DNA of 64,000 bases, taken from Woeseiaceae bacterium (lineage in GTDB: Bacteria > Pseudomonadota > Gammaproteobacteria > Steroidobacterales > Woeseiaceae). Both the position numbers and the translations under genes were made by a program. The notes beneath the pieces were generated by a model, which was not told the DNA's origin, did not search any database, and saw nothing but the letters and a program-made list of their open reading frames with translations. Below, in pieces: positions 7,814 through 64,000 of the stretch. Positions within the stretch are counted from its first letter, which is position 1; every line of letters begins with the position of its first letter. Where the stretch lies: contig JBFIHC010000001.1 of NCBI GenBank assembly GCA_041601995.1, positions 31,468 to 95,467 on the forward strand, written 5' to 3'.

Positions 7814-9346
7814 ATGCCGGCAGCCACCAGAAACACTGACGAATACCTGCAGCGCATCGAAAACGCGTGCGTGTACGACGTCGCCCGCGAAACGCCGCTG
7901 GAACTCGCCAGCACTCTCTCTGCACGCTTTCACAACCGCATCTGGCTGAAACGCGAGGATCTGCAGCCCGTGTTCTCGTTCAAACTTCGCGGCGCCTACA
8001 ACAAGATTGCATCCCTGCCCGACGCGGCATTGCAGGCTGGCGTGATTTGCAGTTCGGCCGGCAACCATGCGCAGGGTGTTGCGCTTGCCGCGAAACGCCG
8101 TGGTGTACGGGCGGTGATCGTGATGCCCGTTACCACGCCTTCGATCAAGGTGGATGCGGTACGTGCCCTTGGCGGCGAGGTCGTCCTGCACGGCGATACC
8201 TACGACGACGCGTTCGCGCATGCCAGCGCCCTGCAGGAACAGCAGGGACTCACCTTCATCCACCCGTTCGATGACCCGGATGTCATCGCGGGCCAGGCCA
8301 CGATCGGCGTCGAAGTCATGGAGCAGAGCGGCGGCAAGGTCGATGCGATATTCGTTCCCATCGGCGGTGGCGGCCTGATTGCCGGGATCGCGGTGTACGT
8401 GAAGGCGCTGTACCCGGATGTCAGGATCATCGGCGTCGAGCCGGACGATTCCGCCGCGATGCAGGCGTCACTGGATGCCGGTAAACCGGTCAGGCTCGAC
8501 CACGTCGGCATCTTCGCGGATGGCGTCGCCGTGCGCCGTGTCGGCGAGGAAACCTTTCGCCTCTGCCAGCAGCACGTGGACGAGATCATAACCGTCGATA
8601 CCGACCATATCTGCGCGGCGATACAGGACATCTTCGAAGACACCCGCTCGATCGTCGAGCCGGCCGGCGGGCTCGCAATAGCGGGCGCCAAGAAATACAT
8701 CGTCGACAACGAGGTCTCAGGCGAGGATCTCGTCGCGATCTGCTGCGGCGCCAACGTTAATTTCGACCGCCTCCGGCACATCGCGGAACGAGCCGCCATT
8801 GGCGAGGAGAAGGAGATGCTGCTCGCCGTCGAGATCCCCGAGAAACCGGGCAGCTTTCGCCGGTTCTGCGAAGCGCTCGGGCGGCGCAGCGTCACCGAGT
8901 TCAACTACCGCTACAGCGACTCGGCGAAAGCGCACATTTTTGTCGGAGTGGAGTTGCGCCACGGCCGGCCGGAACGTGGCGAACTGGTAGAGCAGCTTCG
9001 GGCGGAGGGTTACCGGGTGAAAGACCTCAGCGACAACGAGATGGCCAAACTGCACGTGCGGCACATGGTCGGTGGACGATCGCCGAGAATTGCCAACGAA
9101 CGGCTTTACCGGTTCGAATTCCCCGAACGTCCGGGCGCGCTCCTCGATTTCCTGAACGCGATCGGCACCGATTGGAACATCAGTTTGTTCCACTATCGCA
9201 ATCACGGCTCCGATTACGGCCGCATCCTCGCGGGTATCGACGTACCCGAGCGCGACACGGCGGAACTGGAAGCGCACCTCGCAGACCTCGGTTACGCGCA
9301 TTGGGAAGAGAGCGACAACCCCGCCTACCGCATCTTCCTCGCCTGA
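7814..9346 (+). CDS. ilvA: Biosynthetic threonine ammonia-lyase (threonine dehydratase) with two C-terminal ACT-like regulatory repeats
   Basis: PLP motif FSFKLRGAYNK, GGGGLIAG loop, about 510 aa. Start chosen at ATG 7814 (MPAATRNTDEYLQRI). Confidence 0.93.
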   Translation: MPAATRNTDEYLQRIENACVYDVARETPLELASTLSARFHNRIWLKREDLQPVFSFKLRGAYNKIASLPDAALQAGVICSSAGNHAQGVALAAKRRGVRAVIVMPVTTPSIKVDAVRALGGEVVLHGDTYDDAFAHASALQEQQGLTFIHPFDDPDVIAGQATIGVEVMEQSGGKVDAIFVPIGGGGLIAGIAVYVKALYPDVRIIGVEPDDSAAMQASLDAGKPVRLDHVGIFADGVAVRRVGEETFRLCQQHVDEIITVDTDHICAAIQDIFEDTRSIVEPAGGLAIAGAKKYIVDNEVSGEDLVAICCGANVNFDRLRHIAERAAIGEEKEMLLAVEIPEKPGSFRRFCEALGRRSVTEFNYRYSDSAKAHIFVGVELRHGRPERGELVEQLRAEGYRVKDLSDNEMAKLHVRHMVGGRSPRIANERLYRFEFPERPGALLDFLNAIGTDWNISLFHYRNHGSDYGRILAGIDVPERDTAELEAHLADLGYAHWEESDNPAYRIFLA

Positions 9347-9463
9347 CATATCGACCCGGATAGGACGCCATAGCCCGGGCACGCACCGTTATTCCAAAAA
9401 GTTTGCAACCATTACCGGCTCCGGGGCATCCCATTACCAGGAAGGCCGATATCGGGGTGTCGT

Positions 9464-9625
9464 GTGAATGCCAAGGCTGCGATAGTTTCCGTCTTCGCGC
9501 TCATGCTGGCGGCAGCCGCTGTATGCGGCGAGCAACACCGCCTGCGTTTGGAAGCGGATGTCGACGACGGTGCCGCGTTGAAGCCGGCACATGTCGCCTT
9601 TGAAGAGGTTGACGTAACAGACTGA
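9464..9625 (+). CDS. Possible small secreted peptide (53 aa), hypothetical
   Basis: My own translation from GTG 9464 is VNAKAAIVSVFALMLAAAAVCGEQHRLRLEADVDDGAALKPAHVAFEEVDVTD*. It has a signal-peptide-like N-terminus and is followed 33 nt later by a strong intrinsic terminator. It falls below the ORF-track length cutoff, and I recognise no homology. Confidence 0.3.
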   Translation: MNAKAAIVSVFALMLAAAAVCGEQHRLRLEADVDDGAALKPAHVAFEEVDVTD

Positions 9626-9657
9626 ATATCCCTTATGCCGTTTGTTTCGTACTGACT

Positions 9658-9686
9658 GGCGGTGGCTCGCGCCACCGCCTTTTTTC
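9658..9686 (+). terminator. Rho-independent terminator
   Basis: ggcggtggc-tcgc-gccaccgcc forms a perfect 9-bp GC-rich stem with a 4-nt loop, followed by tttttt. The orientation fits ilvA or the small-ORF transcript. Confidence 0.8.
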
Positions 9687-9688
9687 TC

Positions 9689-11788
9689 TCAGCCCCACAT
9701 CTCCCGCATTCTGGAAGCCACGTCGATCTGCCGGCCCGCGGCAGCGGCTCCGGGTGACGCTGCCTCACTTCGACCGTGCCAGCATTGCTGCAGCGTGCCG
9801 AGCAGGGATTCCGTGACGAAACGGCTGCGCGCGCCGTAGACGTGCCTGTCGCCATCGCGGTGTTGCTGGGTAACGTGGAACCGCAGCGGCGCGACCAAAG
9901 TGAGCGACTGCTTTGCGCGCGTCATCGCGACGTAGAGCAAGCGCCGCTCTTCTTCGATCAGCGCGGGTTTTCCGGTAGCGAACTCCGAGGGGAAATTGCC
10001 GTCCGTCACGTTGAGTACGTAAACGGCATCCCATTCCTGGCCCTTCGCGGAGTGAACGGTTGACAGCACGAGGTAATCCTCGTCGAGCAGCGGATCGCCT
10101 GCGAGATCACCCGCGGCACTCGGCGGGTCCAGCGTCAACTCCGTCAGGAAGCGTTCGCGCGTCGCATATCGGCCGGAAATCTGCTCGAGCTGCTCGATGT
10201 CGGCCTCGCGCGTTTCGACGCCATCGTAAATGCGCTCGAGCTGCGGTTTGTACCAGCGTCTCGCGGCCGCGAGCTGGCTCTGCCAGCCAGGGTCGTCGCG
10301 TTCCGCGGACGCCAGCGTCGTCAGCAAATTGCAAAAACCATCCCACTCCGGCCGCGTAGCGGCCGGCGGCCGGAACGATCGCAGCGAATCGACGTGGTAA
10401 TCCGCAGTCGCGAGATGCCGGAAACAGCGGTGGGCGTTGCTTGGCCCCATGCCGGGGAGGAGTTTCAGGACACGGAATGCCGCAACCTCGTTCTTCGGGT
10501 TCTCCGCCCATTTCAGCAACGCGAGCACGTCCTTTACGTGCGCGGCTTCGAGAAACTTCAGACCGCCATACTTCACGTACGGGATGTTGCGGCCGACCAG
10601 TTCGATCTCGAGGCGATCGCTGTGATGCGAGCCACGAAACAACACGGCCTGGCGCTTGAGTTCCAGCCCTTCCTCGCGGCTGGCGAGGATCGATCCGACG
10701 ACGAACTCCGCTTCGGCATCACCGTCTTCGACCGTCACGTAGCGCGGTTTTCCGCCCGTCGACGTCTGCGACTGCAGGCTCTTTTGATACTGGCGCTCGC
10801 TATCTGCAATCAGGCAGTTTGCACTGTCGAGTATCGCCTGGGTCGAGCGGTAGTTCTGTTGCAAACTGATCACCCGGGCGGGCGGCGTGTACTGCGCCGG
10901 AAAGCCGAGGATGTTCTCGACCTCCGCGGCGCGGAACGAGTAGATCGACTGCGCGTCGTCGCCGACGACCGTCATCCCGGCGCCGTCCGGCTTCATTGCC
11001 GAGAGGATCTTTGCCTGTAACAGGTTGGTGTCCTGGTATTCGTCGACGAGCACGTGATCGAACCAGCCGCCGATTTCCGCGCCGAAATCCTCTTCCTCGA
11101 CAAGGTGGCTCCAGTACAGCAGCAGGTCGTCGTAGTCGAGTGCCTGTGTCTGCTGCTTGCGCTCGACGTAGTGACGGAACAGCGATCGCAGCTCGATTTC
11201 CCAGTCGCCGCACCAGGGGAAATGCTGCTGCAGGGTGTCTTGCAATGTCTCCTGCGCATTCACGCAGCGCGAGTAGATGCCGAGGCAGGTGTCTTTCTTC
11301 GGAAAGCGGCGCGACATCCGGGACAAGCCCAGTTCGTGACGTGCGACGTCCATCAGGTCGGCCGCATCGCCCCTGTCGAGAACCGAGAAGCCGGGGTCGA
11401 GACCGAGAGTATGGGCAAAGCGCCGCAGCATGCGATTGCCCACCGAATGGAACGTGCCCGACCAGGGCAGTATGCCGGCCGGGAGCGCACCTGCCGTGCT
11501 GCCGGAGAGGGCCTGCCGCAGGATCGACTCGACCCGCCGCGTCATCTCGAGGGCAGCGCGGCGCGTGAATGTCAGCAACAGGATCCGGCGGGTATCAACG
11601 CCTTCCACCACCAGGTGCGCGACCCGATGAGCCAGCGTCATCGTCTTGCCGGTGCCTGCACCCGCCACGATTAACAGCGGTCCCGCAGCGAACGCCTCCC
11701 CGTCCCTGCGCTCACCGAAAATCGCGGCCTCGCGCTGCGCCGGATTCAGGCTGTCGAGATAACCGGGCCGGCTGCTGCTCGCTTCCAC
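9689..11788 (-). CDS. UvrD/Rep/PcrA-family ATP-dependent DNA helicase
   Basis: 699 aa. Motifs: LNPAQREAA, Walker A AGAGTGKTMTL, LLLTFTRRAA, VLVDEYQDTN, VVGDDAQSIYSFRAA, QNYRST, and C-terminal VLSTVHSAKGQEWDAVYV...EERRLLYVAMTRAK. Confidence 0.9.
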   Translation of the reverse strand: MEASSSRPGYLDSLNPAQREAAIFGERRDGEAFAAGPLLIVAGAGTGKTMTLAHRVAHLVVEGVDTRRILLLTFTRRAALEMTRRVESILRQALSGSTAGALPAGILPWSGTFHSVGNRMLRRFAHTLGLDPGFSVLDRGDAADLMDVARHELGLSRMSRRFPKKDTCLGIYSRCVNAQETLQDTLQQHFPWCGDWEIELRSLFRHYVERKQQTQALDYDDLLLYWSHLVEEEDFGAEIGGWFDHVLVDEYQDTNLLQAKILSAMKPDGAGMTVVGDDAQSIYSFRAAEVENILGFPAQYTPPARVISLQQNYRSTQAILDSANCLIADSERQYQKSLQSQTSTGGKPRYVTVEDGDAEAEFVVGSILASREEGLELKRQAVLFRGSHHSDRLEIELVGRNIPYVKYGGLKFLEAAHVKDVLALLKWAENPKNEVAAFRVLKLLPGMGPSNAHRCFRHLATADYHVDSLRSFRPPAATRPEWDGFCNLLTTLASAERDDPGWQSQLAAARRWYKPQLERIYDGVETREADIEQLEQISGRYATRERFLTELTLDPPSAAGDLAGDPLLDEDYLVLSTVHSAKGQEWDAVYVLNVTDGNFPSEFATGKPALIEEERRLLYVAMTRAKQSLTLVAPLRFHVTQQHRDGDRHVYGARSRFVTESLLGTLQQCWHGRSEAASPGAAAAGRQIDVASRMREMWG

Positions 11789-53540: not shown

Positions 53541-54134
53541 ATGCGCCTGACCGACGACCGCTATGCAAATGAGAGGAGCCAGTTCGAACTGGCGTTACGG
53601 ATGATTCGGCATGAAGCGCGCACCCGCACGATCCGCGAGTGCACCGGGCTTTCGGATGACCGAATTCGCAAACTCTACAGCACCTATTTCCGCAATCCGG
53701 GACTCACCGAGGTGCGGCGGCGGCGCGGCAAGTCGCCGCGCCAGATCACCCGCTTCGTAAAGAACGCGGACCACCAGCTGCAGTCCACGACCCTCGTCGC
53801 CCTCTACAATACCGGGCTCTTGCTGCGCATCGACGAGCGTAACCGGGTCCACCCGTGCTGGCCGCGGCCTGACGTGGAGTTCGGGCACCGCCTGTGCCGC
53901 GCGTTCGAGACTTACCTGTTACTGCACGAGCGACCGCTCCTGAGTTTCGAGTGGGCATGGAGCCTGCTGCACAGCATTTGCGGTGGCGAGGAACTGCTGC
54001 TTGCCGCATGCGCCCGCTGCCAGGGACGCTATGTCCGGGATGCCTATGCGCTCGATCTCAAGACCTGCCCGTGCTGTGAGATCGAGGCGGAGCGTCGCAG
54101 GCGGCCCGGCATCAAGAGCTTCGGCGGCGATTGA
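53541..54134 (+). CDS. FlhC-like zinc-ribbon transcriptional regulator (non-flagellar context)
   Basis: 197 aa, the same length class as FlhC. By-eye colinearity with E. coli FlhC: an N-terminal helical block, a central LSDDRIRKLY versus LSRGRLIKLY match, and C-terminal CARC-x15-CPCC versus the FlhC Cys4 zinc site spacing. Confidence 0.6.
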   Translation: MRLTDDRYANERSQFELALRMIRHEARTRTIRECTGLSDDRIRKLYSTYFRNPGLTEVRRRRGKSPRQITRFVKNADHQLQSTTLVALYNTGLLLRIDERNRVHPCWPRPDVEFGHRLCRAFETYLLLHERPLLSFEWAWSLLHSICGGEELLLAACARCQGRYVRDAYALDLKTCPCCEIEAERRRRPGIKSFGGD

Positions 54135-54195
54135 ATGCGCGCCAGGGCAATCGGGTAAACTCTCGCACACGTTCGAGGGTCACCTGGGAGATCGG

Positions 54196-55083
54196 GTGCA
54201 GGACCACAATGTTTTTGCAGGCGCATTCGTGGATCGCAGTGGCGAGCGCCGCAAGGATTCCGAATGGCTCGCACGGGCCGCAAAGAGCGAAGCGTGCCGA
54301 TTCGTGCCGGTCTGGGGGGACCGGTGCCTCGTGGGGGGCGATCCGCCGCACGCGATCCTGCTGCCGCGTGACCCGATCGAATCGCTTGTCGATGACGAAC
54401 ACCTGATCTTCCTCGGCCTGTACCAGGACCACCCGACCTTCGCTTTCTCGATTGACCCGGAGCAACCGCCGCCGTTTGCGGAGCTCGGCGAATTTCATGA
54501 CCTGCGGTTCCTCGGCACGACCCTGTCCCCGGATGAAGCCAATCTCGTGGCCCACGCCCGCGCACTCGTCCTCTGGCACGCGTCGCAGCTTTACTGCGGC
54601 GTATGCGGCACTGCCGCAAGACCGGAAGCCGGCGGCAATGCGCGGACCTGCATGAACAGCGATTGCGGGCGGGTGATATTCCCGCGGGTGGATCCGGCCG
54701 TCATCGTGCTGGTATCCGACGGCGAGCGCTGCCTGCTGGGGCGGCAGGCGCGCTGGCCGGAAGGCCGTTACTCGACGATTGCAGGATTTGCCGAGCCGGG
54801 CGAGAGCCTCGAAGACGCGGTGCGTCGCGAGGTCTACGAAGAGACGAACGTGCACGTGGGCGCGGTCCGATACCACAGCTCGCAGCCGTGGCCGTTCCCG
54901 TCATCACTCATGGTCGGGTTCCTCGCGCAAGCCATCTCCGGCGACATCCGCCTGAATGACGCGGAACTCGAGGATGCGCAATGGTTCACCCGCGGGCAGC
55001 TGCGTTCCGGTTTTCCCAAGCTGCCGTTCAGGATCTCGATTGCGCGCCGGCTCGTGGATCACTGGATCGAACTCGAGTCCTGA
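54196..55083 (+). CDS. nudC: NAD(+) diphosphatase (NADH pyrophosphatase)
   Basis: Zinc ribbon CGVCGTAARPEAGGNARTCMNSDCG, Nudix box GFAEPGESLEDAVRREVYEETNV, SQPWPFP motif. Start chosen at GTG 54196 with a GGGAGA RBS; the track ORF starts at 53983 and overlaps the upstream gene. Confidence 0.88.
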   Translation: MQDHNVFAGAFVDRSGERRKDSEWLARAAKSEACRFVPVWGDRCLVGGDPPHAILLPRDPIESLVDDEHLIFLGLYQDHPTFAFSIDPEQPPPFAELGEFHDLRFLGTTLSPDEANLVAHARALVLWHASQLYCGVCGTAARPEAGGNARTCMNSDCGRVIFPRVDPAVIVLVSDGERCLLGRQARWPEGRYSTIAGFAEPGESLEDAVRREVYEETNVHVGAVRYHSSQPWPFPSSLMVGFLAQAISGDIRLNDAELEDAQWFTRGQLRSGFPKLPFRISIARRLVDHWIELES

Positions 55084-55182
55084 TAATTCGCACCGGGGAA
55101 GCGCCCGCCAGTGCCCGTAACGCTTGTGAACATGGATATGCGGAAACATTCGTGCGTAAGCGGTTATTGATATGCTCACGTC

Positions 55183-55953
55183 ATGTGCCTCCTGGTCTTC
55201 GCATTGCAGCAGCACGAAGCGCTGCCGCTCATCGTCGCCGGCAACCGCGACGAATTTCACGCGCGCCCGGCACAATCCGCGCACTGGTGGCCTGACAACC
55301 CGGAGATCCTCGGCGGCCGTGACCTGCAGGCGGGGGGCACCTGGCTTGCGGCGCACCGGGCGGGGCGGTTTGCGGCCGTCACGAATTACCGCGATGCGCA
55401 CAGGGAAAGTGCGGGGCTCAGGTCGCGCGGCCACCTCGTTACCGGCTTTCTGAACGGCGCCGGCGGCGTGACCGACTACCTCGACTCGATCGACGGCGGC
55501 GGCTACGCGGGATTCAATCTGCTGGTATCGGACGGCCGCGCCGCTGGCTACCTTTCGAATCGCGGCGGGGGCATGCGCGAATTGCCGCCCGGCATCTACG
55601 GCCTCAGCAACGCCACGCTCGACGACCCCTGGACCAAGGTAACGCGAACGAAATCGGGACTCGCCGCGTTGCTGCAGCAAGACACGGTCAACGAGTCGAG
55701 CCTGATGCGGCTGCTCGGGGACCGCGAAAAAGCCTCGGCCGACGAAGTCGAGACGAACGGCCTGTCGTTCGAAATGGCGCATGCGCTGACAGCTCCGTTC
55801 ATCGTGCACCCGGTTTACGGCACGCGCTGCTCGACGGTCCTGATCGTCGACGATGCGGGCAAGGTGTCCTTCCTGGAGCGCCGCTTCGATGCGGACGGCC
55901 GCCAGACCGGCGAATCGCAATATTCGTTCGAATCAGGTAAGGGCGCCAAGTAG
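55183..55953 (+). CDS. NRDE-family protein (TANGO2/DUF833-like)
   Basis: MCLLVFALQQHEALPLIVAGNRDEFHARP is the family-defining N-terminus. Confidence 0.85.
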   Translation: MCLLVFALQQHEALPLIVAGNRDEFHARPAQSAHWWPDNPEILGGRDLQAGGTWLAAHRAGRFAAVTNYRDAHRESAGLRSRGHLVTGFLNGAGGVTDYLDSIDGGGYAGFNLLVSDGRAAGYLSNRGGGMRELPPGIYGLSNATLDDPWTKVTRTKSGLAALLQQDTVNESSLMRLLGDREKASADEVETNGLSFEMAHALTAPFIVHPVYGTRCSTVLIVDDAGKVSFLERRFDADGRQTGESQYSFESGKGAK

Positions 55954-56592
55954 CCAGTTGCGGATGTCGCCGATCTCCTGGGGACACACGGCGTGCGCCA
56001 TCGGGTAGTCGCGCCAGTCGACCTCGAAGCCGGCATTGACGAGCGCGTCTGCCGCCGAGCGCCCGTACTGCATGGGTATCATCGGGTCGAAGCGCCCGTG
56101 CGCCATGAAAACGGGCGTCGAGGCATCCACCGATTCGCCTTGCAAGGTCTCCGGAAGCGGGAGCCAGGCGGACAACGCCATCAGCCCGGCCAGCTTTCTG
56201 CCTGCACGCAATACCGTGTTGATCGCGATCGCACCGCCCTGGGAGAATCCCGCCAGCACGATGCGGCCGGGATCGATGCCGCGCTGCTCTTCGCGGGCGA
56301 CGAGCGACTCGAGCAACGCGCTGCTGTCGTTGATGCCGGCGGCGTCGACGGGCCCGTTGCGGTCGAGCGAGACGATGTCGTACCAGGCGCGCATTGCCAT
56401 GCCGCCGTTGAGGGTTACTGGACGCACCGGCGCGTGGGGAAAGACGAAGCGCAGCGGCAGAGTGTCCGGCAGCCGCAGCTCGGGGACGATCGGCTCGAAA
56501 TCGTGGCCGTCGGCACCGAGTCCGTGCAGCCAGATGACGCTGGCGGATGGTTCGGAACCGGTTTCGACTTCGACGGTTTGCGGATCGGACAT
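55933..56592 (-). CDS. Phospholipase/carboxylesterase-family alpha/beta hydrolase
   Basis: 219 aa. VIWLHGLGADG, nucleophile elbow GFSQGGA, HG.FD and MAH motifs. Confidence 0.88.
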   Translation of the reverse strand: MSDPQTVEVETGSEPSASVIWLHGLGADGHDFEPIVPELRLPDTLPLRFVFPHAPVRPVTLNGGMAMRAWYDIVSLDRNGPVDAAGINDSSALLESLVAREEQRGIDPGRIVLAGFSQGGAIAINTVLRAGRKLAGLMALSAWLPLPETLQGESVDASTPVFMAHGRFDPMIPMQYGRSAADALVNAGFEVDWRDYPMAHAVCPQEIGDIRNWLLGALT

Positions 56593-56725: not shown

Positions 56726-57178
56726 ATGCCGAACGCCAACAGCGACCAGGGAGCACGCCGCAGCGCGATTCGCGAGCTGCTCGGCGGGGGTCCCGTGCCG
56801 ACCCAGCAGCAGCTGGTGGCGGAGCTTGCCCGGCGTGGCTTTGCGGCAACCCAGTCCAGCGTGAGCCGCGACCTCAGGGAGATCGGCGCCATCAAGACGC
56901 CGCGCGGCTACGAGCTCGAAGTCGAGGACGCGGACGAGCGGCCGGAGCTAACCGCCATCGGCGAATTCGTGCGCGCGATTCTGCCCGCGGGACCCCATCT
57001 GCTCGTGTTGCGGACGGCGATCGGCGCGGCGCAGCGTGTCGCGCTGGCCCTCGATCGTGCCGGCTGGCCCGAGATCGTGGGGAACATAGGCGGCGACGAT
57101 ACCGTGTTCGTGGCCACCGACTCCGCCAATCACCAGAAGATTCTCGCCGCCAGGCTGGAACGCATCGTCGCGCGCTGA
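56726..57178 (+). CDS. argR: Arginine repressor
   Basis: 150 aa. QQQLVAELARRGFAATQSSVSRDLREIG winged helix, and a C-terminal GTIAGDDT-like GNIGGDDTVFV arginine-binding motif. Confidence 0.92.
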   Translation: MPNANSDQGARRSAIRELLGGGPVPTQQQLVAELARRGFAATQSSVSRDLREIGAIKTPRGYELEVEDADERPELTAIGEFVRAILPAGPHLLVLRTAIGAAQRVALALDRAGWPEIVGNIGGDDTVFVATDSANHQKILAARLERIVAR

Positions 57179-57203: not shown

Positions 57204-58418
57204 GTGAGCAAAGACCAGACACCCATCATTCTTGCGTTTTCAGGCGGCCTCGATACGTCGTTCTGCGTGCCGTGGCTCAGGGAAACCTGCGGCCGCGAGG
57301 TCGTTACCGCGACGGTCGACACGGGCGGCATCGATGCTGCGGCCGCGAAGCAACTCGAAGAGCGCGCTTACGCCCTCGGCGCCTTGGAACACGTGCTCAT
57401 CGATGCCCGGCAGGAGTTCTTCGACACGGTCATCCGCTACCTGATCGCGGGCAATGTACTCAGGGGCAATGCCTACCCCCTGTGCGTCGGTGCCGAGCGC
57501 GGTCTGCAGGCATCGCGGCTGGCGGCGATTGCCAACGAGCGCGGCGCGACGACCGTTGCCCACGGCTGCACGGCGGCCGGCAACGACCAGGTTCGCTTCG
57601 AGGTCGCGCTGCGCACGCTGAGCCCCGGCCTCGAGGTACTGGCGCCGGTCCGCGACAACAGCTGGGTACGGCACGAGCAGCTTGCGTATCTCGAGAAGCA
57701 CGGCCTGCCGCTGCCGGCGCAGGGTTCCGCCTACTCCATCAACCGTGGCCTGTGGGGCATCACGATCGGCGGCCGCGAGACACTGACGTCGCAGAACTCA
57801 ATCCCGGAAGATGCGTGGGTGTTGTCCGCAAAGGCGTTCAGCGAGCCGCTCGAAGCGAGCACACATACGCTCCAATTCGAGCACGGCGTGCCGGTGGCGC
57901 TGGACGGCGAATCGTTCACGCCCGTTGCGCTGATCGAAGCGCTCGAGCAGCTGGCCGGCCGTTACGGCATCGGCCGCGGCATCCATCTCGGGGACACGGT
58001 TCTCGGCACCAAGGGCCGGGTCGCGTTCGAAGCGCCCGCCGCGATCACGCTGATCAGCGCCCACCGGGAACTCGAGAAACTGGTGCTGAGCGCGCAGCAG
58101 GCGCGCATCAAGGACAGCATCGCAGCGATCTATGGCGACCTCGTGCACGAGGGCAAACAACTCGACCTGGTCTGCAGCGACATCGAGGCGCTGCTCGAGT
58201 CGTCGCAACGGCGGGTCAGCGGCAGCGTCACGTTCACGCTGCGCCCGGGCGCCCTGTTCATCAACGGCGTCGATTCGCCGCACTCGCTGCTCGCGGCAAC
58301 GCGCGGCGTGTACGGCGAATCGGCGGGCGAATGGACGCCGGCGGACGCGGTCGGGTATGCCCGCGTTCTCTCCCTGCCGGGCACGCTGCAGACCCGGGCC
58401 GCGGGAGGCCCGGCGTGA
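57204..58418 (+). CDS. argG: Argininosuccinate synthase
   Basis: 404 aa from GTG 57204. AFSGGLDTS, AHGCTAAGNDQVRFE motifs. Confidence 0.95.
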   Translation: MSKDQTPIILAFSGGLDTSFCVPWLRETCGREVVTATVDTGGIDAAAAKQLEERAYALGALEHVLIDARQEFFDTVIRYLIAGNVLRGNAYPLCVGAERGLQASRLAAIANERGATTVAHGCTAAGNDQVRFEVALRTLSPGLEVLAPVRDNSWVRHEQLAYLEKHGLPLPAQGSAYSINRGLWGITIGGRETLTSQNSIPEDAWVLSAKAFSEPLEASTHTLQFEHGVPVALDGESFTPVALIEALEQLAGRYGIGRGIHLGDTVLGTKGRVAFEAPAAITLISAHRELEKLVLSAQQARIKDSIAAIYGDLVHEGKQLDLVCSDIEALLESSQRRVSGSVTFTLRPGALFINGVDSPHSLLAATRGVYGESAGEWTPADAVGYARVLSLPGTLQTRAAGGPA

Positions 58419-59470
58419 GATCCGTCTTCGTCGACAAGGTCGCCTCGGTTGCGCAACACAGCGACCTCGGCAACAAGCTGCGGCTGTCGCCCGACATACC
58501 GTGCGAAGAGGGCGTGCTGATTGCCGTGCGGGTGCTGAACAACAAGGCACGATACAACCAGCTCGAGCTCACGTCCGGACGCATGGCGACGGTCACCCAG
58601 GGCGACATCCTCGTCGGCGCGCTCGGGCACCGCAAGGCGCTGCTCGGCTATTCCGGGCATCTGCCGACGGAGCTCGCCGTCGGCGACACCATACAGATCC
58701 TCAACATCGGCGGGGTTCTCGGCGTCTGCGATTCCGCCAATCCCGACGTAGGGCCGCCGTTCGACTGCGAGGTCCTCGGCACGGTCCTGCATTTCCCGTA
58801 CCTCGGTGAACGCATCGGCGTGCCGGCCCGTGCCGGCGCACAAACGCTGGATCCGGAGGCGGTCCTCGACACGCAGGGCGTCCCGGTCGTGGCGCTCGCA
58901 GGCACCTGCATGGACTCGGGCAAGACGGCGGCCGCCTGCGCCATCGTCAGCCGCTTGCGGCATCGCGGCCTGCACGTGGCTGCCTGCAAGGCAACGGGCG
59001 TGTCGCTGCGGCGCGATATCCTCGCGATGCAGGACGCAGGGGCTGCGGAGACGATGATCTTCTCCGACCTCGGCATCGTGACCACCACGGCGGTAAACGG
59101 GCCGGCGTTGACGCGGACCCTGCTGACGAACCTGGCCGCCGCGCAACCCGACGTCATCGTCCTGGAGCTCGGCGACGGCCTGCTCGGCGCTTATGGCGTG
59201 GAGGCAATACTCTCCGACGCGTCGATCCGCAACGCACTGACGGCGGTCGTGCTGTGCGCCAACGACCCGGTTGCCGCCTGGGGCGGCGCCAAGATACTCA
59301 GGGACCAGTTCCACATCGAACCGGCGGTCGTTACCGGACCGGCGACCGATAACGCCGTCGGCATCGACCAGATATCGGAGCGCCTCGGGCTCAAGGCGAT
59401 CAATGCGCTGTCGAACGGCGTCGCCCTCGGCGACCACCTGAATGGCGTACTCCGGGGAGCCCGGAAATGA
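58415..59470 (+). CDS. Uncharacterised protein embedded in the arg operon: N-terminal beta-rich domain plus a C-terminal DTBS/DUF1611-like nucleotide-binding-fold domain
   Basis: GTG 58415 overlaps the argG stop (GTGA), and the stop overlaps the argC start (ATGA). 351 aa. GTCMDSGKTAAACAIVSRL P-loop-like motif and a later ELGDGLLG motif. In the ORF track it is hidden as the 3' part of the 57272..59470 ORF, whose first 381 codons shadow argG. Confidence 0.75.
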   Translation: MRSVFVDKVASVAQHSDLGNKLRLSPDIPCEEGVLIAVRVLNNKARYNQLELTSGRMATVTQGDILVGALGHRKALLGYSGHLPTELAVGDTIQILNIGGVLGVCDSANPDVGPPFDCEVLGTVLHFPYLGERIGVPARAGAQTLDPEAVLDTQGVPVVALAGTCMDSGKTAAACAIVSRLRHRGLHVAACKATGVSLRRDILAMQDAGAAETMIFSDLGIVTTTAVNGPALTRTLLTNLAAAQPDVIVLELGDGLLGAYGVEAILSDASIRNALTAVVLCANDPVAAWGGAKILRDQFHIEPAVVTGPATDNAVGIDQISERLGLKAINALSNGVALGDHLNGVLRGARK

Positions 59471-60525
59471 GCCGGGTGCCTGCCGTCGTCCTCGGAGCAA
59501 CCGGCTATGTCGGCGGCGAACTGCTGCGGCTGATCGCGGCACACCCGGTATTCAACCTGGCGGCGGCGGTTTCGGAGAGCCGCGCCGGCACGCCGGTCGG
59601 GCGTACGTTCCCGCACCTGGCCGCCGTCCTTGGCGACACGACTTTTGCGGCCCATGAGGCGTGGCTCGAAGGCATCCCCGGAGGATCGCCGCTCGCACTC
59701 TTCTCCGCCGCTCCGCACGGCGCGTCGGCGGCGATGATCGCAAACGTCCTGGCGCAGGCAGGCGCGCGGGGCATCGACGTCCACACGGTGGATGTGTCCG
59801 CCGACTTCCGTTATCGCGGGGCAGCGGCCTATGAAGCGGTGTATGGAACAGCCCACGGTGCGCCGCCGCTTCTCGGCGAGTTCGTCTGCGCGGTGCCGGA
59901 ACACGTTCCGAGCACGACGACGCAGCACGTCGCCCACCCGGGCTGTTTTGCGACCGCGATACTGCTCGCTGCCGTGCCCCTGCTGCAGTCCGGCCTCGTC
60001 GAGCCCGAGCTGTTCGTTACCGGGATCACCGGCAGCACCGGTTCGGGGCGTACGCCCCAGCCGGGCACGCACCATCCGGAACGCCACGGCAACCTGTATG
60101 CATACAAGGCGCTGGCGCACCGGCACACACCGGAGATCGTGAACCTGGCAGAGGCCGCGTCGGGCGTTCGCGCCAACGTCAACTTCGTGCCGCACTCGGG
60201 TCCCTTCGCGCGCGGCATTTTCGCCACGGTGCAGGCGAAGACGGACGGCAGCGCCTCTGCCGCCCGGCTGCGTGAAGCGTTCGAATCACTCTATGCGGAG
60301 ACCCCGTTCGTCAGGGTCATCGACAGCTCGCCAAGACTGAAGAACGTCGTAGCGAGCAACATGGCCGAGATCGCGATCGAGGTGTCGGGCGATACCGTCG
60401 TCGTAATGTCGGCTATCGACAATCTCGTTAAAGGCGCCGCCGGCGGGGCGATGCAATGGATGAACCGCCTGTTCGCGCAACCCGATACGGCGGGCCTCAA
60501 CGGCATTCCGCCGGGCTGGACCTGA
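59467..60525 (+). CDS. argC: N-acetyl-gamma-glutamyl-phosphate reductase
   Basis: 352 aa. VLGATGYVGGELLRLI, active-site HPGCFAT. Confidence 0.93.
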   Translation: MSRVPAVVLGATGYVGGELLRLIAAHPVFNLAAAVSESRAGTPVGRTFPHLAAVLGDTTFAAHEAWLEGIPGGSPLALFSAAPHGASAAMIANVLAQAGARGIDVHTVDVSADFRYRGAAAYEAVYGTAHGAPPLLGEFVCAVPEHVPSTTTQHVAHPGCFATAILLAAVPLLQSGLVEPELFVTGITGSTGSGRTPQPGTHHPERHGNLYAYKALAHRHTPEIVNLAEAASGVRANVNFVPHSGPFARGIFATVQAKTDGSASAARLREAFESLYAETPFVRVIDSSPRLKNVVASNMAEIAIEVSGDTVVVMSAIDNLVKGAAGGAMQWMNRLFAQPDTAGLNGIPPGWT

Positions 60526-60526
60526 G

Positions 60527-61711
60527 ATGCACGCGATGCAGACGAACACGGCGGATGCCAGGACCCGGGAAGCAGCCGCCACGATCCCGGTATACGGCCA
60601 GTTGCCGTTCGTACCGGTACACGCCGAGGGCTGCGACATCGTCACCGCCAGCGGCCGGCGCGTTCTCGACCTGTACGGCGGGCACGCCGTCGCGGCACTG
60701 GGCTACGGGCACCCGCAGCTGGTCGCGGCGCTACGGGAGCAGTCGGCATCGTTGCTGTTCCAGAGCAACGCAGTAGCGCTGGATGTGCGGGCAAGCGCCG
60801 CGGAAAAACTCGTCTCCATCGCCCCGCCGGGCCTGGAACGCGTACTGTTCGTCAACTCGGGCGGCGAAGCCAACGAGAACGCACTGCGCATGGCGTGCAA
60901 GGTAACGAAGCGCAGCAAGGTGCTTGCGATCACCCACGGCTTCCACGGCCGCACCGCGGCGGCTGCCGCGGTCACGTGGAATTCCGACAAGTGGTACGGC
61001 TTCCCGAGGAAACCTTTCGACGTCGACTTCATCCCGCGCGACGACGCCGCGGCGGCCGCCGCCATGATCGGTCCCGACATTGCGGCGGTCATCGTCGAAC
61101 CGGTGCAGGGTGTCGCAGGTGCGTTCGACCTTTCCCGTGAGTTCCTGCTGGCGTTACGCGAGTCGACCGAGCGCCACGGCGCGCTGCTGATCGCGGACGA
61201 AGTCCAGTGCGGCATGGGGCGCTGCGGGCATTTCTTCGCCGTGCAGGCTTACGGTATCGAGCCCGACCTGCTGACCAGCGCGAAGTCGCTGGGCGGCGGG
61301 GTTCCGTGCGCGGCGGTGCTCTGCCGCAACGACATCGCGGAGCAATTCGGGCCGGGCGACCTCGGAACCACCTTCGGCGGCGGTCCACTCGCGGCGGCGG
61401 CGATCAACGCGGTGATCGATGCGATCCGGAACGAGGACCTGCTTGCAAACGTCCGCGAACGTGAGACGCAAATACGCGATTGCTGCGTGACCGGCCCGGT
61501 CACGGGCATCCAGGGCAAAGGGCTGCTGCTCGGTCTCGTGTGCAGCCGGCTCGCAAAAGACGTGCGCGATGCGCTGCTCGAGCACGACATTCTCACCGGC
61601 ACGAGCGCAGACCCGAACGTGGTCCGTATACTCGCGCCTCTTGTTATCACCGACGATCATGTCGACCGACTCGCGCGTGCGCTGGCCGCAATCCCGGGCG
61701 GCGATGCATGA
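60527..61711 (+). CDS. argD: Acetyl/succinyl-ornithine aminotransferase (class III PLP)
   Basis: 394 aa. NSGGEANE, LLIADEVQCGMGR, TSAKSLGGG (PLP Lys). Confidence 0.9.
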   Translation: MHAMQTNTADARTREAAATIPVYGQLPFVPVHAEGCDIVTASGRRVLDLYGGHAVAALGYGHPQLVAALREQSASLLFQSNAVALDVRASAAEKLVSIAPPGLERVLFVNSGGEANENALRMACKVTKRSKVLAITHGFHGRTAAAAAVTWNSDKWYGFPRKPFDVDFIPRDDAAAAAAMIGPDIAAVIVEPVQGVAGAFDLSREFLLALRESTERHGALLIADEVQCGMGRCGHFFAVQAYGIEPDLLTSAKSLGGGVPCAAVLCRNDIAEQFGPGDLGTTFGGGPLAAAAINAVIDAIRNEDLLANVRERETQIRDCCVTGPVTGIQGKGLLLGLVCSRLAKDVRDALLEHDILTGTSADPNVVRILAPLVITDDHVDRLARALAAIPGGDA

Positions 61712-61729: not shown

Positions 61730-62737
61730 ATGAAGACCTTTAACGATCTGGCCGAACTTGGCAACGAGGAAATCAGTGCGCTGCTTGTGCTCGCCAACCG
61801 GCTCGACAAGCAACCGGAGCCGCAGGCGCTGCAGGGCAAGGTGCTGTCGCTGCTGTTCCTGAGCCCCTCGCTCAGGACGCTGGCCTCGTTCCAGGCAGCG
61901 ATGACCCGCCTCGGCGGCGGCTCCTTCGTCATCTCGCCCGAGATGTCCATCCACGGACTCGAGACGCGGCCCGGCATCGTGATGGACGGCGTCGCGGCCG
62001 AGCACATCAACGAAGCCGTGCCGGTCATTGCATCCTACGGCGATGCGATCGGCATCCGCGCCTTCGCCGAGCGCAAGAACCTGGAACACGACATGGCGGA
62101 GACGGAGTTCAAAACGCTGACGGGCCTCATCGACACCCCGTGGATCAACATGGAATCGGCGATGAATCATCCCTGCCAGAACCTCGCGGACTGGAAGACG
62201 CTGGACGACCTGGCCATCCCGGCGAACGGCGGCAAGTTCGTGCTGAGCTGGGCATTCCACCCGAGAGCGCTCCCGCTCGCGGTACCGGCCTCGACCCTCT
62301 ACACGGCGGCGCGCCGCGGCATGGACGTGACCGTGTTGCGCCCGGAGGGATTCGAGCTTCCGGAGCCCGTAATGAAGCGCGCGAAAGCCGCGGCCGAAGC
62401 GGCGGGCGGCGCCGTCCGGGAGACCGACGACCGCGTCGAAGCGATGGAAGGCGCGCATGTCATATACGCCAAGTCGTGGTCGTCAACGCGCCATTACGGC
62501 GACCGCATCAGCGACCAGAAGCTGCGGAACGAACTGGTCGACTGGTGCGTCGACGAGCCCTGGTTCGACAACGCGCGGGACGATTGCCGATTCATGCATT
62601 GCCTGCCCGTGCGCCGCGGCGTGGTCGTCGCCGACAGGATCCTGGATGGACCGCGCAGCGTCGTCATCCACGAGGCACGCAATCGCATGCTGGCGCAGAT
62701 GGCCGTCCTGCACCGCATGCTCGGAGGCAGCAAATGA
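61730..62737 (+). CDS. argF': N-acyl-L-ornithine carbamoyltransferase (AOTCase/SOTCase family, argF')
   Basis: 335 aa. SPSLRT in place of the OTCase STRTR, plus VMDG..AEH, HPCQ and HCLPVRR motifs. By-eye colinear with Xanthomonas N-acetylornithine carbamoyltransferase. Confidence 0.85.
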   Translation: MKTFNDLAELGNEEISALLVLANRLDKQPEPQALQGKVLSLLFLSPSLRTLASFQAAMTRLGGGSFVISPEMSIHGLETRPGIVMDGVAAEHINEAVPVIASYGDAIGIRAFAERKNLEHDMAETEFKTLTGLIDTPWINMESAMNHPCQNLADWKTLDDLAIPANGGKFVLSWAFHPRALPLAVPASTLYTAARRGMDVTVLRPEGFELPEPVMKRAKAAAEAAGGAVRETDDRVEAMEGAHVIYAKSWSSTRHYGDRISDQKLRNELVDWCVDEPWFDNARDDCRFMHCLPVRRGVVVADRILDGPRSVVIHEARNRMLAQMAVLHRMLGGSK

Positions 62738-63666
62738 CGTCAAAACGCGAACTCGCCATCGTCGTATCGGCGCTGAAGCACGCGGCGCCCTACCTGCGGC
62801 TCTTCAAGGGCAAGGTGTTCGTCCTCAAGGCCGGTGGCGAAATATTTGCCGACAAGGCCGCGACCAAGGCCCTGATGGAGCAGGTGGGCATTCTTCACCA
62901 GGTCGGCATCCGCGTCGTGCTGATACACGGCGGCGGCCCGCAGTCGACGCAGCTCGCGGCTGCCCTGGGCGTCGACACGACCTTCGTCGACGGCCGCCGC
63001 GTGACGGATGGCGCTTCCCTCGACGTCGCGACCATGGTGCTCAATGGGCAGATCAACACGCGGGTCCTTGCGGCCTGCCGCGACCTGCAGATCCCGGCCG
63101 TCGGCATCAGCGGCGTCGACGCCGGCCTCATCCGAGCACACAAGCGGCCGCCGGTGGAACGTGCGGACAGCTCGACCGTCGACTACGGTTTTGTCGGCGA
63201 TATCGACTCCGTCGACGCGGACGTATTGCGCAAGCAGCTCGACAACGGCCTCATGCCGGTCGTAAGCCCGCTTTCCTGCGACGAGACCGGCACGCTGCTC
63301 AACATCAATGCCGACACCGTCGCCGCAGCCATCGCGGCGGAGCTCGGCGCCGAGAAGCTGGTCCTGCTGACCGGCGCGCCCGGCATCCTCGAGGACGCCT
63401 CGGACCCGAATTCGCTCATCAGCTACATCGACCGTGCGCAGCTCGACAAGCTGCGCGACGACGGCAAGCTCGCCGACGGCATGCTGCCCAAGGCGGCGGC
63501 CATCGATGCGGCCCTCGCCCACGGCGTTAGTCGCGTCCACGTGATCTCTTACAACTTCCCGGACAGCCTGCTGCTCGAGGTGTTTACCAATGAAGGTACC
63601 GGCACGCTCGTCGTCAACGACATTGCCGCCCTGACGCCCGAGGAACAGGCAGGCGGCGCATCATGA
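62734..63666 (+). CDS. argB: Acetylglutamate kinase (kinase domain only, no GNAT domain)
   Basis: ATGA overlap with argF'. About 310 aa. FVLKAGGE, VVLIHGGGPQ, NINADT motifs. Confidence 0.92.
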   Translation: MTSKRELAIVVSALKHAAPYLRLFKGKVFVLKAGGEIFADKAATKALMEQVGILHQVGIRVVLIHGGGPQSTQLAAALGVDTTFVDGRRVTDGASLDVATMVLNGQINTRVLAACRDLQIPAVGISGVDAGLIRAHKRPPVERADSSTVDYGFVGDIDSVDADVLRKQLDNGLMPVVSPLSCDETGTLLNINADTVAAAIAAELGAEKLVLLTGAPGILEDASDPNSLISYIDRAQLDKLRDDGKLADGMLPKAAAIDAALAHGVSRVHVISYNFPDSLLLEVFTNEGTGTLVVNDIAALTPEEQAGGAS

Positions 63667-64000
63667 CGCGCCTGTGGGACAAGGGCCTGCCGCTCAGCGA
63701 GCGCGTGCTGCGCTACACCGCTGGCGAGGATCACCTGCTGGACGCGCGCCTCGTGCCTTACGATGTGCGGGGCTCGATCGCCCACGCGGAGATGCTCGCG
63801 GCAACCGGGCTGATCGGCGACAGCGACGCGAATGCCATTCGTGACGGCCTGCAGCAGCTGCAGGCATCGTTCGAGGCTGGCGAATGGGGCATCACGCTGC
63901 AGGACGAGGACGTGCACACGGCGCTCGAGACGCGGCTCACCCGGGCCATCGGCGACGCCGGTGCGCGCCTGCACCTCGGCCGCTCGCGGAACGACCAGGT
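63663..64000 (+). CDS. argH: Argininosuccinate lyase. Partial: only the N-terminal 112 aa lie in the window.
   Basis: ATGA overlap with argB. MTRLWDKG...YDVRGSIAHAEML...LHLGRSRNDQ, with the N-terminal motifs of the fumarate-lyase family signature. Confidence 0.92.
   Translation, partial: MTRLWDKGLPLSERVLRYTAGEDHLLDARLVPYDVRGSIAHAEMLAATGLIGDSDANAIRDGLQQLQASFEAGEWGITLQDEDVHTALETRLTRAIGDAGARLHLGRSRNDQ

Follow-up and report, generated by a model that had tools for sequence, protein, structure and literature searches.

In the succinylated route to arginine of Bacteroidetes, BT3761 is the proposed N-succinylglutamate synthase (GapMind, PMC7311316). The same role was predicted in the GapMind 2026 preprint for ACG33_RS14135 of Steroidobacter denitrificans, a bacterium that grows in minimal medium and has no recognisable ArgA (bioRxiv 10.1101/2024.10.14.618325). 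Homologues of ACG33_RS14135 were described there as lying virtually always in arg operons, some of them near argE candidates, and as never occurring in one genome with ArgA homologues; the succinyl-type residue 92 was found in 90-97% of 70 linked ArgF' proteins (bioRxiv 10.1101/2024.10.14.618325). As a precedent for the family the preprint used DgcN, a D-glutamate N-acetyltransferase, whose structure 7XRJ was matched weakly by Foldseek (rmsd of 5.6 A, E 1.4e-7) (bioRxiv 10.1101/2024.10.14.618325). The EC number of DgcN is 2.3.1.312 (quoted in PMC11747546). The enzyme depends on acetyl-CoA.

The window analysed here is a stretch of 64,000 nucleotides from a Woeseiaceae bacterium (GenBank assembly GCA_041601995.1, contig JBFIHC010000001.1, positions 31,468 to 95,467 of the forward strand). 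It carries an arginine operon with the order argR-argG-X-argC-argD-argF'-argB-argH, in which X denotes an uncharacterised gene and its product (Table 1). X is predicted to be an N-succinyl-L-glutamate synthase, the first committed enzyme of a succinylated arginine route, with a probability of roughly three in four; its catalytic activity, substrate and acyl donor are what we infer from the observations given below. The initial annotation had proposed X as a candidate for the enzyme lacking from an N-acyl-ornithine route and had called a role in L-glutamate N-acylation plausible. Gene context, the occurrence of deacylases without acyltransferases, a fusion to ArgB and the preprint all agree with that proposal. 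The role is already published as a prediction and was reached here independently.

The arg-cluster context is the strongest evidence for the role of X. About 170 loci were gathered; genes were called by a codon-position GC filter followed by greedy calling, and were then clustered. Clustering of raw six-frame open reading frames (ORFs) was unusable, as the shadow ORFs of high-GC genomes dominate it. The metagenome scan was made with a 10-sequence X alignment, a 48-sequence alignment being too divergent. X was found inside arg clusters in about 150 related loci, and its position in them is kept in about 80 diverse metagenomic ones. In the window, as in genomes of Woeseiaceae and Steroidobacteraceae, X is flanked by argG and argC; in relatives of 33-40% identity, from unrelated organisms of 40-73% GC, the order is nearly always (argR)-argG-X-argC-argD-argF-argB-(deacylase)-argH. 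De-replication at 70% identity gave 26 lineages; the 5' neighbour of X was argG in 15 of these and argF in 3, and the 3' neighbour was argC in 18, the remainder being mostly contig ends. The arg-cluster context is kept down to about 30-40% identity. In Steroidobacteraceae metagenome-assembled genomes (MAGs), the sole non-arg gene of the same cluster encodes a protein 71-75% identical to X. Judged from this identity and the shared slot, X is very likely the orthologue of ACG33_RS14135 (A0A127FCT3).

No other unassigned gene is constantly present in these clusters. Where argB and argH both occur in a diverse locus, the slot between the two contains an M20 (ArgE/DapE-type) gene in 8/23 and an AstE/AspA-family gene in 2/23. 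No GNAT, ArgA or ArgJ gene was found in the X-bearing arg clusters, in which ArgB is of kinase-only length throughout (in the window, a kinase domain without GNAT by Pfam). The other embedded ORFs were accounted for as evident shadow ORFs and as genes for two membrane proteins, one of them small, and for a protein with a tRNA-binding domain. Glutamate N-acylation is therefore the sole step left without a gene in the clusters.

AstE/AspA-family genes in the argB-argH slot, which an M20 gene occupies in other lineages, were observed at two low-GC loci (L091, 4401-5273; L092, 14052-14972). They look like a non-orthologous replacement of the N-acylcitrulline deacylase.

The nature of the acyl group was assessed from ArgF'. 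In a review of transcarbamylases, Glu92, Asn185 and Lys302 (Xanthomonas numbering) mark the acetylornithine enzymes, and in those for succinylornithine these three positions are A/S/P/V/Q, P and V/I/E (PMC4581275). The ArgF' of the window has A90, and its residues corresponding to 185 and 302 are P and V; its best match in the PDB was the E92A mutant of the Xanthomonas N-acetylornithine carbamoyltransferase (AOTCase). When the 96 X-linked ArgF' proteins of full length were compared, A, T, V, S or Q stood at position 92, P at position 185 (96/96) and V, I, E or A at position 302; the acetyl triad E/N/K was found in 0/96. The choice between acetyl and succinyl had been left open in the initial annotation; the A90/P/V residues of the window speak for succinyl, and the lack of E92, N185 and K302 in the same protein speaks against acetyl. 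Succinylated intermediates, like those of the route in Bacteroidetes (GapMind, PMC7311316), are therefore predicted for this pathway, given that the ArgF' triad is of the succinyl type and that a member of AstE/AspA, the succinylglutamate desuccinylase/aspartoacylase family, can occur as the deacylase. The name attached to NF003384, 'N-acetylornithine carbamoyltransferase', is probably wrong for the ArgF' of the window, to judge from these residues, and probably represents a systematic mis-annotation of the clade.

In a diverse set, Thr occupied position 92 of ArgF' in 19/38 proteins (TPI in 16, TPV in 3), and Thr is outside the published list for N-succinylornithine carbamoyltransferases (SOTCases). 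The best structure and sequence matches of X (see below) are to dethiobiotin synthetase (BioD), an ATP-dependent, carbamate-activating enzyme. Both findings would suit a different ATP-dependent, BioD-like reaction for X, either carbamate or ureido chemistry or the placing on glutamate of an N-block other than succinyl or acetyl. Such a reaction is considered highly improbable, as Pro185 in all linked ArgF' proteins and V/I/E/A at 302 fit the succinyl type, the AstE/AspA and M20 deacylases suit succinyl or acetyl, and no additional carbamoyl-phosphate or CO2-related genes were linked to X.

In a search of the whole 64-kb window and of the flanks of all loci, no M20 or AstE/AspA gene was found in the window or in or near the Woeseiaceae clusters (0/47), and S. 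denitrificans is also without a recognisable ArgE (bioRxiv 10.1101/2024.10.14.618325). Taken with the position of X directly 3' of argG, whose product consumes citrulline, these absences would favour X as the enzyme that desuccinylates N-succinylcitrulline, by hydrolysis or by an ArgJ-like recycling to glutamate that would fill both gaps at once. That X acts in this way is nevertheless very unlikely. Where a dedicated M20 or AstE/AspA deacylase is encoded in the same cluster, X would be redundant; the ArgB fusion indicates the start of the pathway; and Cys165 in the P-loop of X is not invariant in a 50-member alignment, which leaves no obvious nucleophile there. Searches of X with Pfam and NCBIfam gave no M20 or AstE_AspA catalytic domain, and we know of no P-loop SIMIBI protein that hydrolyses or transfers an amide-linked acyl group.

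An Abhydrolase_2 gene of carboxylesterase type (55933-56592, reverse strand) lies divergently 5' of argR in the window and is also present in the Woeseiaceae-type loci examined; in 53 loci the arg cluster is bordered by the cluster of this gene. The gene was considered as the desuccinylase and dropped, the adjacency being lost in Steroidobacteraceae, and is probably a case of plain synteny.

X was also found joined to an ArgB-type kinase. The protein P0223 consists of a complete X, a short linker and a complete kinase; its X part shares 39% identity with the X of the window, and its kinase part 31% with the ArgB of the window (E 2e-33). It was recovered in identical form on four contigs from four samples (L170, ~7860-9881; also L171, L172 and L173), where it stands alone beside a divergently transcribed arginase-family gene. 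The called start of P0223 is too late, and an in-frame 5' extension restores the N-terminus of X. Fusion of a GNAT domain to a kinase is the architecture of classical ArgA and of the bifunctional NAGS/K. The X::ArgB fusion resembles these GNAT-kinase fusions and, by that analogy, ties X to the step adjoining ArgB. Two other proteins, P0282 (549 aa) and P0183 (687 aa), have the look of X-ArgC fusions; they contain ArgC fragments only and probably arose at the ATGA overlap from a frameshift, from read-through or from faulty gene calling.

More than 6,900 homologues of X were obtained at E<=1e-3 among 8,000 candidates scored, and the family comprised 1,467 clusters (50% identity, E<=1e-3). The nearest proteins were 90-94% identical and the nearest genomes were Woeseiaceae MAGs; family members were annotated 'hypothetical' in every source. 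X had been described as uncharacterised, and in searches against Pfam and NCBIfam no model was matched above threshold. The best sub-threshold scores were for MobB (21.9 bits versus a cut-off of 26.6) and DUF1611_C (see below); TIGR00176 scored 26.7 versus 76.2, and X is not a member of AAA_26, CbiA or MobB at the curated thresholds. No GNAT (Acetyltransf_1) or ArgJ domain (Pfam, NCBIfam, E<=0.1) and no AA_kinase domain (Pfam, NCBIfam) was found in X. Over 50 family members, weak Pfam contacts were made with MobB in 22, CbiA in 17, DUF1611_C in 9 and AAA_26 in 4.

In an alignment of 50 full-length members, with identity down to 28%, R73, P84, G169, K170, T171, K192, E251 and D284 were invariant and D201 was near-invariant. 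The P-loop and the ELGDG motif reported in the initial annotation were located at the positions listed in Table 1. X has the features that define a SIMIBI P-loop protein, namely an alpha/beta fold, the loop GTxxxxGK[ST], a lysine behind beta-2 and, at Walker B, an acidic residue. The lysine, K192, is taken by us to be the equivalent of the catalytic Lys37 of BioD.

A model of X was made from this alignment with AlphaFold2 (predicted local distance difference test score, pLDDT, 97.0; predicted template modelling score, pTM, 0.93). It consists of the beta-rich N-terminal domain that had been suggested from the sequence (residues ~1-130 in the model), a linker and an alpha/beta P-loop C-terminal domain. 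The N-terminal domain is all-beta in the model but for one short helix, and reached a pLDDT of 91.7 when modelled alone. Searched against PDB structures, those of DUF1611 included, it gave no neighbour (best E=1.2, template modelling score, TM, <=0.24), and in the model it looks like a new fold. Foldseek of X against the PDB aligned the C-terminal domain only. The first match was BioD (E ~3e-6, probability 1.00, TM 0.52-0.59 on the target), followed by the signal recognition particle (SRP) GTPases FtsY/Ffh, HypB and a MeaB-type protein. BioD was likewise the best match (E 2.7e-4) when PDB sequences were searched by profile, and this alignment includes the P-loop as well as the lysine after beta-2. 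As modelled, X represents a separate unnamed family in which a BioD-like SIMIBI P-loop domain stands behind a beta domain that has no relative among solved structures.

The SRP GTPases, HypB and the MeaB-type protein were matched at the Foldseek E-value level of BioD. Together with MobB and CbiA as the strongest of the weak Pfam likenesses, and with the translational coupling of X to the adjoining argG, this would be in keeping with X as an accessory or regulatory SIMIBI nucleoside triphosphatase, which would serve an arg enzyme such as ArgG as a regulator, assembly factor or chaperone, much as MobB, HypB/UreG or MeaB/ArgK do, while the synthase went unrecognised elsewhere. An accessory function is judged improbable. 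X has a BioD/CobQ-type P-loop (GTxxxxGKT) together with a BioD-type lysine after beta-2, no GTPase specificity motif was seen in the conserved columns, and the fusion partner of X is ArgB, not ArgG. The archaeal clusters with X relatives, which have no arg genes, hold enzymes of N-acyl amino acids. An accessory X would moreover leave the pathway without an ArgA, and the family is reported to be strictly anticorrelated with ArgA homologues (bioRxiv 10.1101/2024.10.14.618325).

The C-terminal domain of X had further been likened to DUF1611 proteins, and this part of the initial annotation was not upheld. PF07755 (DUF1611_C) reached 14.1 bits (E 0.031), its cut-off being 25, and covered residues 156-195 only. 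The Rossmann-like N-terminal domain of these proteins, DUF1611_N (PF17396), gave no Pfam match to X, whose N-terminal domain is beta-rich. In the fold search BioD came first, the DUF1611 structure 2OBN held rank 38 (E 5.5e-5) and the DgcN structure 7XRJ was absent from the best 50 matches; BioD, the SRP GTPases and HypB fit the fold better. Sequence and profile searches of the PDB with X gave P-loop-level matches only and never reached 7XRJ or 2OBN. Membership of X in DUF1611 was dropped on these scores, the unmatched N-terminal domain and the identity of the closest structure. Since PF07755 is sub-threshold, the N-terminal domain unrelated and BioD closer, the analogy with DgcN is a lead and not evidence. 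DgcN is, to our knowledge, the only precedent for acyl transfer in the BioD-like fold class.

In the proposed route, X would convert L-glutamate to N-succinyl-L-glutamate, replacing GNAT-type ArgA, ArgJ or BT3761. ArgB would phosphorylate N-succinylglutamate and ArgC would reduce the product; transamination by ArgD would give N-succinylornithine, and carbamoylation by ArgF' would give N-succinylcitrulline. Citrulline would then be freed by a desuccinylase, in many relatives the M20 or AstE/AspA protein and in Woeseiaceae presumably one encoded elsewhere, and ArgG and ArgH would complete arginine synthesis. Within X, the BioD-like P-loop domain may bind the nucleotide moiety of an acyl donor or of a cosubstrate, and the beta domain with its invariant R73 may supply the glutamate site.

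For the acyl donor of X, two analogies were considered. Transfer from succinyl-coenzyme A (CoA), comparable to the action of the DUF1611 enzyme DgcN, is given a little under even odds. ATP-dependent ligation of free succinate by way of an acyl-phosphate (succinyl phosphate), comparable to BioD and CobQ, is put forward tentatively and is considered rather unlikely. The latter may be extended to a fuller picture, in which X is an ATP-dependent succinate:L-glutamate ligase that combines acyl-phosphate chemistry, a BioD/CobQ-type P-loop and a beta fold not seen before, provides a CoA-independent entry to arginine, and has relatives in DPANN archaea that feed N-blocked amino acids to RimK-type ATP-grasp ligases; taken as a whole, this picture is doubtful. 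Complementation of an E. coli argA mutant by X would probably give a false negative, because the downstream enzymes of E. coli use acetylated intermediates.

The DPANN relatives of X (~29-30% identity; one of them from an Aenigmatarchaeota MAG) lie outside arg clusters (L083, 10001-13714; L084, 1234-4947; L085 and L086, 8984-14316). At these loci the X relative is accompanied by two or three RimK-type ATP-grasp ligases and by a fusion of a C39-like peptidase with a mechanosensitive-channel-like domain. The stop codon of X overlaps the start of an ATP-grasp gene in L083 and L084, and in two of the DPANN loci an AstE/AspA-family deacylase lies directly 5'. The loci look like a separate system acting on N-acyl amino acids, with an osmolyte or a small peptide as conceivable products.

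Several points count against the assignment of X as N-succinylglutamate synthase. The modelled fold does not by itself identify an acyltransferase, its nearest relatives being the ATP-dependent carboxylase BioD and the GTPases or metallochaperones SRP, HypB and MeaB, and the likeness to DgcN and DUF1611 is a weak, generic P-loop likeness. Woeseiaceae and Steroidobacter are without a recognisable deacylase as well, so that one gene faces two gaps. X adjoins argG, the gene of the citrulline consumer, rather than argB, and the X::ArgB fusion is confined to one lineage. The absence of ArgA and ArgJ genome-wide rests on the preprint, our own search having covered the operon and related clusters; the synthase role of the family is a prediction both here and in the preprint; and the orthology of X with ACG33_RS14135 was deduced from the identity to the Steroidobacteraceae proteins and the shared slot.

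X is a genuine gene, because it has many homologues, their N-termini align within a few residues of its GTG start, and the AlphaFold2 model is confident. Re-reading of the coordinates and junction letters agreed with the ORF and the couplings as first reported. At the argG/X junction (GTGA) the TGA stop of argG (58416-58418) overlaps the GTG of X, and at the X/argC junction (ATGA) the ATG of argC (59467-59469) overlaps the stop of X; ATGA overlaps were also found between argF' and argB (62734-62737) and between argB and argH (63663-63666). A GGGAGG box (58403-58408) 6 nt 5' of the X start and a GGGGAG box 7 nt 5' of the argC start serve as ribosome-binding sites. X was masked in the ORF list because it appeared there merely as the last part of a frame of 732 codons; the mechanical ORF 57272-59470 (732 aa) is made up of a 381-codon shadow ORF and, in frame with it, the 351 codons of X, as had been noted. 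The names first given to the neighbours (ArgR, ArgG, ArgC, ArgD, an AOTCase/SOTCase-type ArgF', an ArgB without GNAT, and the start of ArgH) were borne out by Pfam and NCBIfam, and in the case of ArgH by its grouping with Lyase_1 genes of related loci.

Table 1. Coordinates of the arginine operon and of features within X (positions in the window)
Feature	Coordinates	Strand	Description
argR	56726..57178	+	Arginine repressor, 150 aa; Pfam Arg_repressor and Arg_repressor_C; NCBIfam TIGR01529
argG	57204..58418	+	Argininosuccinate synthase, 404 aa; Pfam Arginosuc_synth and Arginosuc_syn_C; TIGR00032 310 bits, over cut-off
X	58415..59470	+	351 aa; GTG start 58415-58417, TGA stop 59468-59470; no family above threshold
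X, N-terminal beta-rich domain	58415..58864	+	Residues 1-150; invariant R73, P84; near-invariant S11, G33, E51, G71, A75, G81
X, P-loop GTCMDSGKT	58901..58927	+	G163-T171; G169, K170, T171 family-invariant; aligns with BioD P-loop GTGTGVGKT
X, K192 codon	58988..58990	+	'KLTG' motif after beta-2; invariant in 50 members; aligns with the lysine after beta-2 of M. tuberculosis BioD (hidden Markov model)
X, ELGDG	59165..59179	+	Walker-B-like; E251 invariant
argC	59467..60525	+	TIGR01850 295 bits, over cut-off
argD	60527..61711	+	N-acylornithine aminotransferase, 394 aa; Pfam Aminotran_3; nearest NCBIfam models argD/acetylornithine transaminase, below cut-offs
argF'	61730..62737	+	Acylornithine carbamoyltransferase, predicted N-succinylornithine-specific, 335 aa; NF003384 318 bits, over cut-off; A90/P/V triad
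argB	62734..63666	+	N-acylglutamate kinase, 310 aa; Pfam AA_kinase only; ATGA overlap at both ends
argH	63663..64000	+	Argininosuccinate lyase, 5' part, continues past the window end; groups with Lyase_1 genes of related loci

Further genes were observed around the operon of the window and within related clusters. The region 5' of the operon (53541-55953) encodes a 197-aa protein with a faint FlhC-like match, an NADH pyrophosphatase of the NudC type and a member of the TANGO2 family; this gene order is kept across Woeseiaceae and partly across Steroidobacteraceae, and no connection with arginine was seen. In soil lineages, two small genes recur in arg clusters, between argC and argD (L114, L121, L146, L150, L151, L159 and L165) and between argD and argF (L103, L108, L115 and L121); they encode a tRNA-binding-domain (PF01588) protein of ~122 aa and a membrane protein of ~85-95 aa without a Pfam match.

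If the predicted role is correct, X would be a third, structurally unrelated answer to the first step of arginine synthesis, after GNAT-type ArgA and ArgJ. It would close the 'missing ArgA' gap in abundant bacteria of sediment and soil, the Woeseiaceae, Steroidobacteraceae, Acidobacteriota, Myxococcota and Planctomycetota, which would otherwise be scored as arginine auxotrophs, and the succinylated route would reach well beyond Bacteroidetes. Many ArgF' proteins named 'N-acetylornithine carbamoyltransferase' are probably mislabelled. To the published prediction the present analysis adds the generic, P-loop-only character of the DgcN likeness, the N-terminal domain without a solved relative, AstE/AspA as an alternative deacylase, the X::ArgB fusion, the DPANN relatives beside ATP-grasp ligases and the unsuitability of E. 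coli argA complementation. The remaining value of the case lies in the mechanism, CoA versus ATP.

Compared with BioD and the CobQ/CobB/CTP-synthase SIMIBI group, X can be aligned at its GTxxxxGKT P-loop, at its lysine after beta-2 and at its Walker-B-like motif E-x-G-x-G, and K170/T171, K192, D201 and E251 presumably reproduce the residue set with which BioD binds Mg-ATP and phosphorylates the oxyanion of its substrate. It differs from BioD in its low identity (13-18%, no Pfam threshold being reached), in a conserved Met in place of the P-loop Thr and in the extra 150-residue N-terminal domain. DgcN resembles X in having two domains, the C-terminal one a BioD-like P-loop domain, and in N-acylating glutamate, as is predicted for X; the N-terminal domain of DgcN is Rossmann-like, whereas that of X is beta-rich and without a PDB match, and, if the predicted role is correct, DgcN would act on D-glutamate with acetyl and X on L-glutamate with succinyl. 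ACG33_RS14135, from a sister family of the same order, very probably belongs to the protein family of X and has in common with it the operon slot, the arg linkage and a succinyl-type ArgF', with no essential difference between the two; the preprint leans on DgcN 7XRJ for it, whereas in the present searches BioD and the SRP GTPases outranked DUF1611 and the N-terminal domain was unmatched. The GNAT-type synthases (ArgA, NAGS/K and BT3761 / Cabys_1732) have folds unrelated to that of X, which carries no GNAT, ArgJ or AA_kinase domain, but they have in common with it the predicted reaction and the position in the pathway, and fusion to an ArgB-type kinase domain is found in both.

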